Notes: generated by a model not told the origin, from the letters alone. A DNA stretch of 64,000 nucleotides from Vicugna vicugna (GCA_013265495.1 MU057416.1:56545-120544), one strand, 5' to 3'; shown: positions 21,778-62,374, counted from the first letter of the stretch. Program-made: numbers and translations.

Positions 21778-22588
21778 NNNNNNNNNNNNNNNNNNNNNNN
21801 NNNNNNNNNNNNNNNNNNNNNNNNNNNNNNNNNNNNNNNNNNNNNNNNNNNNNNNNNNNNNNNNNNNNNNNNNNNNNNNNNNNNNNNNNNNNNNNNNNNN
21901 NNNNNNNNNNNNNNNNNNNNNNNNNNNNNNNNNNNNNNNNNNNNNNNNNNNNNNNNNNNNNNNNNNNNNNNNNNNNNNNNNNNNNNNNNNNNNNNNNNNN
22001 NNNNNNNNNNNNNNNNNNNNNNNNNNNNNNNNNNNNNNNNNNNNNNNNNNNNNNNNNNNNNNNNNNNNNNNNNNNNNNNNNNNNNNNNNNNNNNNNNNNN
22101 NNNNNNNNNNNNNNNNNNNNNNNNNNNNNNNNNNNNNNNNNNNNNNNNNNNNNNNNNNNNNNNNNNNNNNNNNNNNNNNNNNNNNNNNNNNNNNNNNNNN
22201 NNNNNNNNNNNNNNNNNNNNNNNNNNNNNNNNNNNNNNNNNNNNNNNNNNNNNNNNNNNNNNNNNNNNNNNNNNNNNNNNNNNNNNNNNNNNNNNNNNNN
22301 NNNNNNNNNNNNNNNNNNNNNNNNNNNNNNNNNNNNNNNNNNNNNNNNNNNNNNNNNNNNNNNNNNNNNNNNNNNNNNNNNNNNNNNNNNNNNNNNNNNN
22401 NNNNNNNNNNNNNNNNNNNNNNNNNNNNNNNNNNNNNNNNNNNNNNNNNNNNNNNNNNNNNNNNNNNNNNNNNNNNNNNNNNNNNNNNNNNNNNNNNNNN
22501 NNNNNNNNNNNNNNNNNNNNNNNNNNNNNNNNNNNNNNNNNNNNNNNNNNNNNNNNNNNNNNNNNNNNNNNNNNNNNNNNNNNNNNNN
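21778..22588. other. Assembly gap (811 N), flanked by poly-T and (CCTT)n
   Basis: Run of N; simple repeats on both sides. Confidence 1.
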
Positions 22589-35899: not shown

Positions 35900-37570
35900 G
35901 ACGATACCGGAGACTCCACGTTGCGGAGTCCCCGTCTCCGTTCACATCTCCCTTATCTCCTGGGGCAGCCAGGTCCCGGGGATGCTGGGCGTGCCGTGGG
36001 CGGTGGGCGTCCCTGCCGGGCGGAGGGTCTCTAAGGCCTGACCAAGCCATTCTCAGCAGCTCCAGTTCTGGACCGCAGCGGCGGTGTGACTAGCCCGTTC
36101 CTCGTTCAGACTCCAGAAGCCCCACGATTGATTAAATCCATGAACTCAGGGCTATTATCAGCTGCCACGTAGGAACATGGAGGGACATTTGGCAGCAAAA
36201 GAGCAAGTCTGAGAATACAGAGAATTGTCCACCGCCTGCGCTCCTTGGTGTGTTGGGGACCTGGGAGGGTGTCTTCAGGAGGAAAGGGGGGTCTTGAGAA
36301 AGCGGCGCGGGCGGCAACAGCCCAGGGGTGGGATCGGTGCAGACACCGAGCGGCTAATTAATTGCAAGTAACTCTGCAGGTAAGAAAGGAAGGGCTCTGC
36401 CTTGGACAGGGTGAGAGAGCGAGGTCACTGTCACCGTGTTGCTGTGCTATCAAGAGTGGTTTGGGTGTAGAGAGCCGGGCGTCACAAGTCCCTTGTCAAA
36501 GTGACACGGTGTGTAACCTTCACGGCGCAGAAGTACGCGCTTCCCCAGAGCTCACTGTCCTGAAGCGGACTCGGAAGCAGCCGTGCCCTCTTCGGGCTCC
36601 GGGATGAAAGGGTCCGAGCGCAAACGCTGGAGCGAGCCCCGTCCACCCACCCGCACGCCGGAGCTCCCGGGCGGTGGTGCAGACAGCGCGCGGGGAGGAG
36701 GAAAGCAAAGAGCATGCATTCCGCTTGTGGCGGGGGAGCAGAGAGACACAGACACAACAGCGGAGGGTAAATAGGCGGTTCCCCGGGAGCGGCATCGGGG
36801 GAAGGCGGCTCGTGGAGGCGGGCGCAGCGGCCTTCAGGGCAGCGCGCTCTGGCTGGGATCCAGCGCGCACGCGCAGAGGAGGCCGCGCAGCGGGCGTGGG
36901 ACTGAGCGGAGAAAGCGAAGCGAACGGGGTAACAGATCTGCGGACGCGACCCAGGCCCGGGCGGAGAGGGAGGCACGGAGGGAGGGAGGGAAGGAAGGAC
37001 GAAGACAAGGGCAAGGTTAGGGTCACATGTGGCAAACGCAGCCGCCCTCGTGACCCGTTGAACGCTGACGTTAGATGACGTCACCCCTACTCAGATCCCG
37101 CCAAGGTCACCGCGTCATTGGGAACAGCCAGATTTCCCGCCAGGGACGGGGCCCTGCGTGACCCGGCCCCTTCCGGGGCGCTGCTTCCGCTAACCTCCCC
37201 CTGCTCGCGGGGCCTCGACTCTTCTGCCGGCTGCTCCCCAGGTGCCCGGTCTCCGGGCTGGCCCCTTGCCTAACGCCCTTGGCGCGCCCTGAGCTGCGCG
37301 TGCGCAGCTCTCGTTGTGACTCTTGCTCACAGCTGCTCGGTGGCTCCTGCTCCCTTGCAGGTAAAGAACAGACTTCTTAGTACGGCCTCAAAGGGCCTTC
37401 GCACGCGGCCCTGCCAGCCTCGCCGACAGCAAGGCGAGCCTTCTTCTCCCCAAGTGCAGCCCTTCCGCTGTCTCCATCTCCGCGCTTCGTGCACGCGCCC
37501 CTCTCCGGGTGTAGCACCCCCCGCCCTCCCATGTTCGTCAGGCTGCCTCGTAATCAGCGCCACGTTTGGG
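35900..37570. promoter_or_regulatory. CpG island / promoter-like region with no recognisable gene
   Basis: Visibly dense in CpG and GC. Motifs: TGACGTCA (37076-37083), TGACGTTA (37066-37073), TTTCCCGC (37133-37140), CTTCCGG (~37170), TGCGCGTGCGCA (37295-37306). Confidence 0.7.
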
Positions 37571-37634
37571 GTTTCTCTGTCCTTCTGGCAGGCCGGTAAG
37601 AGATTCTAAGTAATGTCTTTAAAAATGTAATTTA

Positions 37635-37785
37635 ATTTAATTTTTAAAAATTGAAGTGTAGTTGATCTACCATGCTGTTAGTTTCAGGTATACCGTGATT
37701 CAGTCACCCGCATATAGACATATTCTTTTTCAGACTTTTTTCCCATTGTGGTTGTCACAAGATATTGACTATCGTTCCCGTGCTA
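37635..37785 (-). mobile_element. L1 3' end fragment
   Basis: attgaagtgtagttgatctac...ttagtttcagg...caagatattgactatcgttcccgtgct. Confidence 0.75.
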
Positions 37786-38619
37786 AGTAGTGTTTTAAGT
37801 TCTAATTCTGTGAAATTCCTGTTGCCGTGCTCATGAGAGGCTCTTCTCGTGTTACGATGATAACTGTTGTTTCCTGTGAACATTAAATTTGGTCATTAGC
37901 CCTTAACCAACCCAGTGTGCCAAGCACTGATACCTCTTCTGCGCGGTGGTGGATGGTTTTGGACGGGCGTTCATGAATGGTGGGCCATCCGAGTTTCAAT
38001 CAGCAAAATCACGGCTCTTTCAAACTTTGCTGACTCCGATGCAGTCACCGTGGGAAACTTCTTGCTTCTTGTGTAGACTGCTTTGTACAGAACATTCGGT
38101 GCTGGTGGTTTTATTTGAGATGTTTGGGCATATTTACATTTTTGCTTAGGAAAGCATCTTTCCGAACTGTGACTACAAACTGTGAGTTCACTAGGAAACG
38201 GGTCTTTAGAATATTGGCAAGGTTCTCATGTTCACTGTAAGCTCTGTTTAAATATCTTTGGGGTTGGTCTGTGGAACACATATGTTCTTATTAATTGATT
38301 ACACATTAATAAAAATGGTGACAAATTAACACTCGCGGGTGCTTTTGCAAGGGGAGAGCTAGCATGCTACAACAGTTTCCGTCAAACTTCGGCACTGTTG
38401 GAGTCTACTTAACCGAAGAGAAATAGTTTACTTTAAAAATAAGATCATTTCATAAGGGTCTATTTAAACTCTGCAGAAGTAAATTACAGTAATTTTTCTG
38501 CCATTCCTACCTCACCACCCCCTCCCCTCTCATTCTATCTTTTAATCAGATTATTTGACTCAGTTCTCTTTCAACTGTACTCGTAATAATTGCCATTATT
38601 ATTATAAACTCTTACATAT

Positions 38620-43787: not shown

Positions 43788-44045
43788 CTATGTCACATCT
43801 CTTACTATAAACAGGAGCCATAGCAATGAGGTGGCATGTAGACACTGTTTATTGAACAACGGAGTGCTTGTGTAGTTGGTGACTCTGTAGTTCGAGTGGA
43901 TTTCCGGTTTCACATCACAGACGATGCTCAAAAGCTGGTTGATGACACTTTCCATGGACGTGCTGTGGCTCCCATCCAGCTCTTTTATCTTCCTCAGTGT
44001 CTGTGCTTCTATCTCTCTGGAGAGATTGCTCTGGGAGCCCATTGT
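43788..44045 (-). CDS. ATP6V1G3: ATP6V1G3 exon 3 coding part; orthologous stop position 43872-43874 is TAC, frame runs on to 43788
   Basis: Acceptor ttctgttctggtag|ACA ATG GGC TCC CAG. ORF 43788..44042 matches the G3 C-terminus up to NYRVTN and then continues for 28 extra residues. Confidence 0.93.
   Translation of the reverse strand, partial: TMGSQSNLSREIEAQTLRKIKELDGSHSTSMESVINQLLSIVCDVKPEIHSNYRVTNYTSTPLFNKQCLHATSLLWLLFIVRDVT
43848..43853 (-). terminator. Candidate polyadenylation signal AATAAA (another at 43452-43457)
   Basis: tttatt on the plus strand, ~20 nt past the orthologous stop position. Confidence 0.35.
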
Positions 44046-48110: not shown

Positions 48111-49332
48111 GAAGAATAATTCATATGTTAGAAATATCTTCTGCAGGATCAGAAAAGCTGATTGGTGTTAAGGGTGATTATTTTTTGGATCCTAATAAGT
48201 CATGGTTATGACAGGACTCAATAGGAAAGATAAAAGCATAGAAGAAATGTTGAGTTACTCATTCTTTCAATGAATACTTACTGTGTATTTACAATGGGGC
48301 AGTAACGTCTAGGAAAGCAACAGGGAACAAAATAAAGAACCTGCCATTTTGGTGCTTACAGTCCAGAAGGAAAGATAATCAATAAGCAAAAAATGTGAAT
48401 GTATAGTATATCCTGTAGTGATAAATGCTATGACTATAATTAGTACTTTCTTTTTTTATGAGAGACACAATCTTAGATAAGGTGATCGAGAACAAGAGCC
48501 AACAACTAACTGAACAGAGATCAAAGAGCAATGAATGTCTGTGAAAGAAGAGGATTCCTGGGAGTGGCTACAGCATATGCAAAGGCCCTGTGGCAGTGGC
48601 CTGTTCAGTTCACCTGGGGAAGAGCAGGGAGACACATGTGGCTAGAATAGAACAAGTAGAGACAAAGGGAGTAGAATATGTTACAAATGACCAAAGTAGA
48701 CATTGTTGCCAATTGCTGACAAGTCTTCTGGTATTTCCTTATGATTTTCTTTTCAACTAGCTGGCTCCACTCAATAAACCTTTCATACAAAATATAAAGA
48801 CATGCTGTTCCCTACACTAGCATTTAAAAAATATCTGCACTTTCAAAGGCAAGTGCATGACACTCAGAGCCCACAGGTCAGAGAGAGAGCCGAAGGGCAG
48901 TTGTGAGGGGCGTATGTGTTTGTGTGGACTGGGGAGTCTATGATTCCTTTTTCCAAATATCGATAAGAAGAATTTATTTTTGCTGAGTGGTCCACTTTAT
49001 TCTAAGGCCCTTTTGTTTCAAGAAACAGCCCGTTGGAAAAGTTTTTCCTATCGTGGGATCTCATTCACCTGATCTAACGCAAGCTCTGCATTGACTCCCA
49101 CTAAAATCAAAGCTGTAAACGGAGAGATTTACAAACTGCTTGCAGTTCATCTTGCCGTGTCAGGCTTCTGCACAGACCTTTATTTGTGTTTTTGCCAAAG
49201 AGAAAATACATCAACTTTAGTTATGGCGCATGGAATTTAATAATTCCTTTTAGTTCATGTTGCAAATCAGCTCTGAAAAATTCCTGCACTTATGTATTTT
49301 ACTGTAAACTGCAGATATTTTTTAAACGCTAA

Positions 49333-49463
49333 TGTATGAAAAAGCATTTCTTTACATTTTCATTAAAGATTGGTTGAAGGGAGCCAGCCAGTTGAAAAGG
49401 AAATCGTAACGGAATACCAGAAGCCTTTGCAGCAATTTGCAACAATATCGACTTTGATCATTT
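49333..49463. repeat. Intronic source copy of the 131-bp dispersed duplication
   Basis: Aligns without gaps to 50013-50143 (offset 680) with 4 mismatches. Confidence 0.97.
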
Positions 49464-49933
49464 ATAAATCTTGAATTAACCAAAGGAAATTTGGCCTAAC
49501 AAGCTCACTGTAGAACATTGTTCAACACTTTTTATTGATTCTACTAGTAAACATTAATAGACAAAAAAAAAGTTCTCTGTATTTTTTTCTTACTAAAATG
49601 TGTTAGTCAATCATCTGTAGTAGGAATAAAACTAACCAATTCCATCAACTTGTATATCTGAGAATATGATTTTTAACACATACGATGTATTAGATAAGAA
49701 CTATGGATTGACAGTCTCTATGACGAATGTGAAAACGTCAAATCGGTGATTCTGGGATGTTTCTGATTTGATTTGCGGTTCAGCCATGGTGAAGTCTATT
49801 TGCTCCATCCGATATGTTCTCTCCTGATATCCTGCGTCGGACCTTATGAAGATGAAGATCTCATCACTGTTCATGGATGTTAGTGTCTTACCATCTAAGC
49901 TGCTTGGAAATCGGTGCCAGCCGTCTCGCTCAC

Positions 49934-50157
49934 CTTAGCGTGTTTCAGCCGGAATGCCTGATCTCTCTGCATCCTGTACTGGTCAGTCTCTGCCATCGCT
50001 TCCTCCTTGGCCTGTATGAGAAAGCATTTCTTTACATTTTCATTAAAGACTGGTTGAAGGGAGCCATCCAGTTGAAAAGGAAATCGTAACGGAATACCAG
50101 AAGCCTTTGCAGCAATTTGCAACAATACCGACTTTGATCATTTTGGCTTGGCTTTTC
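49934..50157 (-). CDS. ATP6V1G3: ATP6V1G3 exon 2 (224 nt, disrupted by an insertion; ~101 nt expected)
   Basis: Acceptor tgttaattttcag|GA AAA GCC AAG CCA AAA TGA (stop at 50138-50140). Homology resumes at CAG GCC AAG GAG GAA GCG ATG (50014) and ends CAC GCT AAG|gtgag. Confidence 0.92.
50013..50143. repeat. Inserted copy of the 131-bp duplication inside ATP6V1G3 exon 2
   Basis: Direct repeat of 49333-49463, flanked on both sides by exon 2 coding sequence. Confidence 0.97.
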
Positions 50158-52454
50158 CTGAAAATTAACAGTGGCACAGAAAGGACAGATTTCTCTTCAG
50201 CATACAGAATTTCAAACTTGCTTTTTAGAAATACAGGTGAGGTCTACATGATTTTCAGATGCTCCACCCCCCCCCCCGCCTCAAATGATGCCCTTTGTTT
50301 AGAAACAAGCAATACTGAAAAATTCCTTGTTTTTTCAACTGGATTCTTTCGAACACGGAAATGACAACTTTCTTTTACACTCACATGTTTAAATGAAATA
50401 TCTTCCCGTTTACTATCACAGGAGTAACAGCCAGAGAGCAGATCTGAGCTGTCACTTACTCAGAAAGACATTATTTGGTCAGATCTGCTGTCCTGATTTG
50501 CTGCCAGGAATCCTTCAGTCCACACCAAATGAATCTGTTTAACGCTGGCAGACCTCCAACCGGCACTACAAACATGTGGCTCAGACTCTCTCAAACCAAC
50601 TTACAGTTTTTTAAAGCATTTTATTGGGGTGTTTTCCTTACCGTGTGTTGACTCTAGAATGTCTGATTAAGCCCCAAAGCACATCAAAGTAGACATTTTT
50701 TGTAGTCGCTTTCTCTGAGGGGGACTTGAAAGTGGTTGTAAAACCAACGGTTTTAATGGTTAGGAGATTTAGTTAAGTAGCTCTCTTTTCTTTTATTAAG
50801 AGCAAAGGTGTAAGCCTTAAGCCAGCAGATAGCACGGTAGATGAAAGTTTCAGAAAAATGTGAAAAACTGTGGAGATCATTAGGTAAGCACATGACTTTT
50901 TTGACAACCAGAGGAAGTATTGGGGGGGAGTGACAGAGTCATGTTAATCACTGCTCAGCCCTTACCACCCACCACCTTCGGGGAAGCTAGGTACTAACGC
51001 TCTGTGATCATTAAAACTTTAAAAAATCTCTGAACTGTATTGAAACTAATTTTCTTCAGAATCTATTGTCTTTCTATTTTAGTTAAATGCCTTGATTCAT
51101 TTGCCCGTTTAACATCATTTTTTTCTTCTGGTAAGATCTCTTAAGCTTTGGTTTATAATTTTTGTCAATGGTTTGTTGCACTATGTAGACTTGGAACTAA
51201 ATGTGTTTTCATTAAGTAGCATGAAAGAAAATCTTAACATAAACCTTATCTGTCATCTAGATACACAGGTTTACATGGCTTTGTTTTTGTGTAACTTTGT
51301 TGCATTTGAGCAGAGATGAGTCCTAAATTTCTCTTCCTGCTGCACAGAAGTTGCTTTGCGAGTCGCTGTATATGTGTGGACAAGAGACAGTCACTGTGTT
51401 ACACACTGAAATGTGTCTCTTTTAGTACCTCTTACCCTTGAGCGGGACTGAGCAGACGTCATTCACAACGCATATTTAGCTCTGTCTTAATTGTCCTTAG
51501 AATCCAAGGTCTAGTGAAAATGAGTGTTCTTCCAATGACTGAGCCTTAATGGAACGTTACCAGTAATGCTTTCCTTTTTCCTCCTCAATTCATGCTCGTT
51601 ACCATCTTGTATGTACACTTTTCTTCCTCTCTGGAGCTCTGACCACTTCCTGGCAACCACACACACGCCGTTCACAGGACAAACAAGCGAAATGTTGGCA
51701 AGGAAAACCATTCCTAGCCCCCAGCTCACTTTCTTATCCCTGCTTGTCACTAACATGAGGACAAAAATATATGTAAGAGGTGAGAAGATTTCTTAGTCGT
51801 AACGTGCTGTGGGTTACGTAACGAGTGGTCGGACACTATCTGATTGAGCAAAAAACCCCATAAAACATCATTACTTTCCATCTTAATTGCATATTGTGTA
51901 AAAGTACTTGTTTCCAAGTTGCAACTCGAGCACATTAAAAAAAACAACAACAACTAATAATAGGAAAAGCGCTGCGTGCCCGGCCCCTGCGCAGAAGCTG
52001 GCGCCCCTCTTCGGAGGCTGCGTGAGCTCCGAGTGCGCCTGCTTCCCCGGTGTGGCGCCGGTCACCTGCTGGTTCTCATTCAGTTAAACAGGGGAGCCAC
52101 GGGGACCTCGGGCGGCCCGCGGCGGGGAGGCGCAGGGCACCAGCCAGCCCGCATGGCCTGACCGCTGCTGGCTTCTGCGTCTGCGTGGGAACCTTCCAGA
52201 TTTTACAATTGCACCTCTTCCTTCTTTAAGCATTAAAAGCGTGGCTGCTGGGAACCCAAATGAGATCACGTTCCTATTTCTCAATACTTTCTCTCTCAAA
52301 CACAGGGGTGACCTTTTGGGACAGTCCAGATTTTAAATAGAACAGTCACATATTGGTCCCCAATTTCCTATAAGGTCACACGAGGCCAAATGTCCTGATT
52401 TTTGGTTTAGAAAATGAGACAACTCGTGCGTCATGATTTTATTACTTTAGAAAG

Positions 52455-59232: not shown

Positions 59233-60208
59233 AAATACACTCACAAGCCTTGCTCTAGCAGGGTAAGTTCTGAAAGTCTTGTAAATAAACGGATTTAGGA
59301 AGAAGATGGTGAAGCTAAGCCTGCAAGTGTGTTGCTGCTGTGATCGATTAGTTGCCGTTCTGAGTCTCTGTTCTGCCTCTGTGTCAGATTTTCAAATGAA
59401 TCTCTTTTTGGAAAAAAGGCGAGTAAATCTATGGGTTTACAAAGATGACGGCTCTCTGTACCTCGCATGGCATTTCCACATCTGTCTCGTGGGGGAGTCT
59501 TCTGAGGAAGGTCTTCTCATCAGTGAATATACCAGAGCAGCCTGAAAATCACTGGCACCCAACAAGTACTTACTGAATTAAACACATAAATAAAATTAAA
59601 AAAAATAGTGAAATAGCAGAAAAGCTACGAAATAGCAGGTACACAAGGCAGCATTGCACTTGGCCGCGGCGAGCTGAAGAAGCGAGTGACGGGCACGGGC
59701 CCCGGAGCTGTCACCTAGCCGCCCCTGCGTGTGGCGTCTGGGCAGGGAACGGCCCCCGTCTGTCCGGTGAAAACGGCCCCCGAGCCCGTGCTCCCCGAGG
59801 CCAAGGACGGGCTTCCTCTGAGAAAGTGAGCGCAGAGCTCACTGGTTGAAACAACAGTTGGAAAGATATTTTCCAAAATATTTTTAAGGCCAGGGTATTT
59901 ACTATTACTGGTTGATATTTGTTCAAAGATTTATGAACAAAGACCAAGAAAAAAAAGTACATAAGTATTTTAAGTGACTGGTCAACAAAATGAACATTGT
60001 GTATACAAATAATACAGTATGGACCTTCCGGTACTGACTTCCGAGGAGAGATTGCCCGAACACAGCATACTGACCAAGGGGAGGGAAAAATAGCCTGTCT
60101 TCTACCTTTCCTGTGAAAGCTGAGGTTAGATTGTTCTGAGAGGTTCCCACCTCCAAATGACTTGCCTGATTCCCAGTGCCTCTCTAATGACTGAGGAATG
60201 AGAGATAA

Positions 60209-62068: not shown

Positions 62069-62150
62069 TCCTTTTGGCTTCCTCGAGCTTGTCCTTGGCC
62101 CTTTTCTCTGCCTGGAGGAGCTGGTGGATCCCCTGGGACTGGCTGGCCGT
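62069..62150 (-). CDS. ATP6V1G3: ATP6V1G3 coding exon 1 (82 nt, starts ACG instead of ATG)
   Basis: Minus strand reads gccggccaccACG GCC AGC CAG TCC CAG GGG ATC CAC CAG ... GCC AAA AGG A|gtaagc: 27 codons plus 1 nt, phase-1 donor. Confidence 0.95.
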
Positions 62151-62374
62151 GGTGGCCGGCTCCAAGTCAGGTGGCTTCTGAGAATCTGGGAAGGGATGGA
62201 AATCACCACAGAGCTCACACTGTTGTGTCAGCAGTGAGCACTCAGCACAGCTGTTGGCTCCCAAGCGGCCTGATCAGGTGGGGGAGCGGGGCTCCAAGGA
62301 GAGCCCAAGGGTGGAATCCAGAAGAACAAGTCAAGTCAAGGAAGCTGAGAGCTCACTTCTGCCAGCTTCAGGTC

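Follow-up and report, generated by a model that had tools for sequence, protein, structure and literature searches.

The ATP6V1G3 locus

The sequence analysed here, referred to as the window, is a stretch of 64,000 nucleotides from Vicugna vicugna (GCA_013265495.1 MU057416.1:56545-120544). As judged by homology, the gene interrupted in it is ATP6V1G3, which is located on the minus strand and codes for subunit G3 of the V-ATPase, an isoform known from kidney intercalated cells. An open frame running across the insertion gave as its best match the NCBI model of the Vicugna pacos V-type proton ATPase subunit G3 (E 3e-11), a protein of 170 aa that carries Pfam PF03179, and a tblastn search with this model returned minus-strand exons at 62186-62070, 50029-49931, and 44045-43869. 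The last part of the insert codes for the residues KCFLIQ of the model, with the exon-copy variant at 50020 included. The features of the locus are compiled in Table 1.

The splice sites of all three exons are intact. In the second exon, to which the initial annotation had correctly assigned the event, as confirmed by the acceptor, the donor, and the orthologue length, 101 nt are expected from the 118-aa orthologues, compared to 224 nt in the window. The exon begins with 12 retained nt, continues with 2 filler nt and the copy of 131 nt, and closes with a further 79 retained nt; the net gain of 123 nt agrees with the earlier figure. This gain keeps the frame within the exon, yet a TGA stop codon arises in frame when the exon is conceptually translated.

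Outside the gene, the bin 36001-38000 is the only 2-kb bin of the window with a G+C content above 0.55 (0.589); it lies about 6 kb past the end of ATP6V1G3 and is possibly a neighbouring gene's promoter or a CpG island. The assembly has a gap at 21778-22588 (811 N).

Table 1 Features of the ATP6V1G3 locus, with positions counted from the first nucleotide of the window
Feature	Position	Strand	Remarks
Exon 1, coding part	62069..62150	-	82 nt; donor gt at 62068-62067
Start-codon position	62148..62150	-	ACG (Thr), context gccaccACGg
Exon 2 in its present form	49934..50157	-	224 nt; acceptor cag at 50160-50158, donor gt at 49933-49932
Two bases at the 5' junction	50144..50145	-	CA on the minus strand; window compared with the 11 letters of X17
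Inserted copy	50013..50143	-	131 nt; derived differences at 50020, 50050, 50067, and 50128
In-frame TGA at the insert start	50138..50140	-	Translation ...K A K P K stop
Source (template) copy, intron 2	49333..49463	-	Also present in the relative without the exon insert
Proximal arm of the inverted repeat	49306..49467	+	Fold with MFE -290.1 kcal/mol, z = -18.0
Third copy, inverted, about 82% identical	48681..48843	+	Distal arm of the long intronic inverted repeat
Exon 3, coding part homologous to orthologues	43875..44045	-	57 codons
Orthologous stop position	43872..43874	-	TAC (Tyr); same extension in Camelus models

The copied segment and its source

A repeat search showed that the segment 49333-49463 recurs at 50013-50143 in direct orientation over 131 nt with 97% identity and a start-to-start spacing of 680. 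The recurrence of intron sequence within exon 2, which the initial annotation had described, is thus found by the repeat search and by a script alike, and the script, with 127 of the 131 positions identical, returns exactly the four mismatches listed before, i.e. 49340/50020 (A/G), 49370/50050 (T/C), 49387/50067 (G/T), and 49448/50128 (T/C). The match breaks off sharply at either end, where the seven flanking bases on each side differ except for one chance match. A match of 131 nt at 97% identity is far above the chance expectation.

In the genome of 2.03 Gb (12,405 contigs), the 131-mer was found in three places only, all of them at most 1.5 kb apart and within this intron and exon; copy counts obtained by such a search of the organism's own genome are lower bounds. 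The flanks of the insert in the window contain no target-site duplication, no poly-A stretch, and no terminal repeats. With three local copies only, a single-copy spacer between two of them, and neither target-site duplication nor poly-A, a reading of the 131-mer as a transposon or dispersed repeat was rejected, in accordance with the earlier statement that no transposon signature is present and that the 131-mer is not a multi-copy repeat.

The description of the source as unique intron 2 sequence had to be abandoned because of the third copy, which is inverted; the template is one arm of an inverted repeat. The arms, 49306-49467 and 48681-48843, have a length of about 163 nt and are 82% identical, and the spacer of 462 nt that separates the inverted copy from the intron copy occurs once in the genome. 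When the region 48670-49480 was folded as gene-sense RNA, a value of -290.1 kcal/mol was obtained versus a mean of -189.3 for shuffled sequences (n = 20), which corresponds to a z value of -18.0. The copied segment lies wholly within the proximal arm and starts 4 nt from the base of the hairpin. An Rfam scan of 48500-50300 detected no family; MESTIT1_2 remained below threshold with 22.7 bits compared to a gathering value of 80 (E 0.52).

Occurrence of the insertion in llamas and camels

Among 24 listed public sequencing runs, 14 contain a share of 0.90-0.94 of the sampled sequence words; these runs, which are DNA or unlabelled, belong to two coded organisms, A and B, and to six studies, and contigs were examined for two of them, X12 (organism A) and X10 (organism B). 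Each of the two yields a contig of 680 nt (49418-50097) which crosses the junction 50012|50013, is unbranched there, and agrees with the exon copy of the window at 50020, 50050, and 50067. The core of 60 nt common to both copies forms a separate contig with about 1.7-fold depth, as for a sequence present twice. Since X12 and X10 depart from the window at 49814 and 49822, they do not derive from the assembled individual. Neither run has contigs over 48600-49387 or 50098-50400, and such holes prove nothing. The other junction, 50143|50144, is supported in other samples by the share of words and by the NCBI model, whereas no contig spans it. Two independent DNA runs, one each from organisms A and B, thus have the junction and the exon-copy variants in their contigs, which bears out the earlier view that the insert is not an artefact of assembly.

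Two further runs, X15 (an RNA library) and X17 (of uncertain kind), served for comparison and come from a relative that differs from the window at 49 of 1,927 bases (about 97.5% identity). Their contigs extend over intron and exon alike and contain no joints between exons. At 49951, X15, which is about 97.6% alike, shows the G>A exchange that corresponds to the Arg-to-Trp change of the Camelus G3 proteins. A contig of 960 nt (48856-49810) from this run spans the intron copy and differs in it solely by G>A at 49412. This position is G in both copies of the window and A in the relative and in the inverted copy, which fits a llama-lineage substitution predating the copying. The X15 contig 49781-49981, which spans the donor of exon 2 together with 150 nt of intron, reaches a depth of 67.8 compared to 9.0 in the adjoining intron contig; contig depth in this RNA library cannot show transcription.

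The start of the uninterrupted exon is visible in X17, where a contig covering 50146-50372 is preceded by 11 letters that are unlike the window and read R-L-R-Q on the minus strand, i.e. the exon continues. This ancestral reading consists of 11 loose letters of one contig with a depth of 5.8 and is too short for bridging; it fits RKAKRLRQAKEE of the Camelus ferus and C. dromedarius models, which lend it independent support. Exon 2 is uninterrupted in all three Camelus models, one of C. ferus (223 aa) and two of C. dromedarius (118 aa and 204 aa). Because the relative has the intron copy together with an uninterrupted exon start, and exon 2 is intact in Camelus, the copying ran from the intron into the exon. 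In the comparison of Old World with New World camelids, proposed earlier as a means of dating, the X15 and X17 contigs and the three Camelus protein models place the insert outside the Old World camels. On the sequences compared, the insertion is an event of the Lamini lineage that took place after its split from Camelus.

The four differences and the age of the insertion

The inverted copy and the intron of the relative, as read in X15, both have the base of the window's intron copy at each of the four mismatch sites, and the four changes therefore all occurred on the inserted copy. The assignment of the substitutions that the initial annotation had left to outgroup data is thereby settled, with the inverted copy and the X15 intron providing the outgroup states. 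A 4:0 split of the changes has a two-sided probability of 0.125, and no more than 1.67 changes would be expected on one copy of 131 nt over the time since the split, compared to the four observed (P = 0.088). The four differences may include errors of the copying polymerase. Taken at face value, they give an age of 1.2 times the camel/llama split, with a 95% Poisson range of 0.33-3.07 times (3.1 when rounded). With all four differences on the inserted copy, possible synthesis errors among them, and such a range of ages, they do not provide the clock for dating the inactivation that they had been taken for.

Older lesions in ATP6V1G3

Two lesions lie outside exon 2. The seven non-camelid orthologues that were aligned have Met as their first residue and terminate at the usual point (118 aa), whereas the window has ACG at the start position and TAC at the stop position. 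Between the ACG and the upstream stop at 62276, the translated window contains no in-frame ATG. Beyond the stop position, the frame is open for 28 codons, TAC included, up to a TAG at 43790-43788. Both Camelus models that reach the start (P0002 and P0121) have Thr there, and the read-through tail is common to all three Camelus models that cover the stop position. As the loss of start and stop is shared with Camelus, these lesions are older than the insertion, and both codons were probably lost in an ancestor shared by camels and llamas. The event in exon 2, regarded as the inactivating one by the initial annotation, is for this reason, and in view of the coding divergence at a neutral rate reported below, probably not what put the gene out of action.

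Two side observations concern the ends of the frame. A sequence AATAAA at 43848-43853 (minus strand) falls into the part of exon 3 that is read through beyond the orthologous stop position, and precedes the TAG at 43788-43790 by 58 nt; were it a poly-A signal in use, transcripts would be devoid of an in-frame stop codon. Upstream, the in-frame codon 62274-62276 (minus strand) is TGA in the window and Arg in the RefSeq model P0121 of C. dromedarius (…RSGHLGANS…), so that this model, labelled 'partial', extends further upstream.

The coding divergence was assessed between the window and C. ferus, which differ in amino acid at 6 of 114 codons when the residues affected by the insert are left out. 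The neutral expectation, simulated with an intronic divergence of 2.54%, is 6.3-6.6 differences, and the probability of six or more would be 0.002 at an omega of 0.2 and 0.025-0.03 at an omega of 0.35, where the yardstick for the neutral rate consists of 1,927 nt of intron and protein models from draft genomes. In relative-rate comparisons with the right whale, the camel branch shows an excess of changes (12:3, 13:2, 11:2, and 8:2; p = 0.035, 0.007, 0.023, and 0.11, respectively), whereas comparisons with sheep and muntjac gave 7-11 to 4-6 changes, which is not significant (p = 0.18-0.77). These data make it likely that ATP6V1G3 was already non-functional before the insertion, which would then probably have had no functional consequence.

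The alternative is that the insertion killed a working gene, in which case G3 would until then have been translated from the ACG or from an upstream exon and the tail would have been tolerated. Such a history is in keeping with the ACG being placed in a perfect gccaccNNNg context, with the intact splice sites, with a Camelus frame that is otherwise open, and with an NCBI annotation as protein-coding in three species. It is opposed by the missing upstream ATG within the exon and by the upstream exons of the public models, where those providing a Met in alpaca and in C. ferus are unrelated to one another and the dromedary model is the partial one; furthermore, Lamini and Camelus differ in as many amino acids as expected under neutrality and two independent classes of lesions are shared between them. 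We therefore regard a working gene at the time of the insertion as unlikely. The remaining doubt concerns the ACG, which in its optimal Kozak context may initiate weakly, and the C-terminal tail, which may be tolerated.

Junctions and proposed mechanism

At the 3' junction with respect to the minus strand (50012|50013), three nucleotides are shared between the copy and the exon, ACA on the minus and TGT on the plus strand. The initial annotation was right in noting microhomology at one junction, of which it counted only two nucleotides. At the other junction, the CA at 50145-50144 matches neither the template nor the ancestral order and is either filler or, in an alternative parse, a retained CA; microhomology is therefore found at one junction only and the other one has two unexplained bases. 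Depending on how the overlap is counted, 7-10 ancestral exon bases were lost, rather than about six as previously given, with the ancestral exon start taken from the loose letters of X17 and the Camelus proteins.

The direct copy of intron sequence, the small deletion, and the overlap of 3 nt fit microhomology-mediated copying and hence the locally templated insertion that had been proposed for this exon. Within exon 2, a break or stalled synthesis would have occurred once the Lamini lineage had separated from Camelus. The 3' end ...AAGC (50146) would have gained two bases and primed at 49463 on the intron, present as the resected partner strand, from where it may have been extended to 49333 before it dissociated. 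Re-annealing through the ACA/TGT microhomology at 50015-50013 would have led back to the original exon, at the cost of the lost exon bases. Taken together, a templated insertion in the Lamini that arose via repair or replication and fell into an already non-functional ATP6V1G3 is the account which we consider quite probable. End joining by polymerase theta and a two-step FoSTeS/MMBIR switch would fit equally well, and the sequence alone cannot separate them.

Copying of a templated insert from near the break, minimal homology, and small deletions form a signature of polymerase-theta end joining according to PMC4490562. The insert in ATP6V1G3 shares with this class the match to a flank on the same chromosome, the deletion of 7-10 nt, the short filler, and the inheritance through the germline, and has a homology of 3 nt at one of its junctions. 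In contrast, its template is located 550-680 nt from the break, downstream in the gene, and not tens of bp away; with an insert length of 131 nt, this is atypical of the published cases, for which PMC4490562 and PMC8421209 mention mostly shorter inserts and templates in 'close proximity' or no further than 100 bp away. In MMBIR, as portrayed in PMC8421209, templated insertions arise by template switching at microhomologies of 2-12 bp, on average 3.7. The ATP6V1G3 event resembles MMBIR/FoSTeS in its two template switches and the return to the original exon, with a 3-nt microhomology at one of the switches, and is unlike it in that the second switch has no microhomology. It also differs from the search signature set out in PMC8421209, an inverted copy within 100 bp, since the copy is direct and 680 nt away. 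The class of templated insertions is already known, and the case of ATP6V1G3 is a well-documented addition at its long and distant end.

A history of two events would consist of a tandem duplication of 680 bp (49333-50012) and a later deletion of about 557 bp, comprising the remainder of the second unit and 8 exon bases. A 680-nt unit in head-to-tail arrangement would give exactly the junction seen at 50012|50013, TGT microhomology included, in accordance with the spacing of 680, and polymerase-theta-dependent tandem duplications are a class described in PMC13031629. A tandem duplication should, however, comprise two complete adjacent copies, and the repeat covers no more than the first 131 of the 680 nt. 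Moreover, two rearrangements are invoked where one is enough, the same 10 nt of the exon would have to contain the second breakpoint by coincidence, and the intermediate allele was not seen in X10 and X12. We give this history a small chance of being right.

The intronic inverted repeat might itself have caused the templated insertion, with the hairpin acting both as the site of stalling or breakage and as the template, or with edited double-stranded RNA as the template of repair; the probability of this is slight. In its RNA form, the proposal holds that intron RNA, stabilised as a hairpin arm, was reverse-transcribed into a break in exon 2. The insert is in transcript orientation and its source lies entirely in the hairpin arm, with its end 4 nt away from the base of the hairpin; read in the sense of the transcript, two of the four changes are A-to-G, the type that editing of double-stranded RNA produces. 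The two others are T-to-C and C-to-A in the same sense, and a 5' G, a neighbour that is disfavoured for ADAR editing, precedes one A-to-G site. Templating by DNA predicts the same orientation equally and nothing demands RNA, so that we consider an RNA template very improbable. If a hairpin or RNA route were true, the locus would be a natural and datable case of hairpin-directed or RNA-templated repair in the mammalian germline.

An assembly artefact, for which only the prior experience that short local duplications are sometimes mis-assembled can be adduced, or a dispersed repeat inserted independently can practically be dismissed, because the junction and the copy-specific variants occur in two other individuals from two coded organisms and are echoed in the NCBI alpaca model, and because the three copies in the genome are all local and free of target-site duplications and poly-A.

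Gene models and status of ATP6V1G3 in camelids

The public models of ATP6V1G3 in camelids are ad hoc, with lengths of 170, 204, and 223 aa, and carry a protein-coding label. Gene predictors placed a cryptic acceptor inside the insert and thereby avoided the stop codon, which shows for annotation practice that predictors can hide a pseudogene by their choice of a cryptic splice site. As a separate candidate, a frame-restoring acceptor at the end of the insert (tgctttctcatacag|G) was tried and discarded, as the exon, with its end at 49934, would have 79 nt versus 101, not a multiple of three, and would meet a stop codon.

The NCBI alpaca model contains the residues KTGTGSGA, which resemble the KTGTAS mini-exon of a 124-aa isoform in human and other species. 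A search of the window for KTGTGSGA led to TGSGA only (59775-59789, minus strand), which is preceded by different residues (…GSTGSGA). Either the mini-exon of the alpaca model differs from the genome of the window or it is located elsewhere.

On the evidence of its lesions, ATP6V1G3 appears to be a unitary pseudogene across the Camelidae. As is typical of such pseudogenes, it is an orthologous, intron-bearing locus with lesions shared across the clade and later, lineage-specific ones on top, and intact orthologues exist in other orders. It is unlike recorded unitary pseudogenes in that its loss is absent from the literature searched and that the public annotation is protein-coding. No report of a camelid ATP6V1G3 loss was found in the searched literature, although subscription journals and non-text supplements may contain one; the matches listed for ATP6V1G3 with 'gene loss' or 'pseudogene' include no loss in a species, and the term 'ATP6V1G3' does not occur in the supplements of the comparative gene-loss papers PMC12127551 (six files) and PMC7498332 (one file).

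The insertion is an unusually well-resolved natural case, in which source, product, ancestral target, and the outgroup state at every variable site are available. The apparent, unrecorded camelid pseudogene is the more useful by-product of this analysis. If the loss of ATP6V1G3 in camelids is true, renal acid secretion would be managed in these animals without the G3 isoform.
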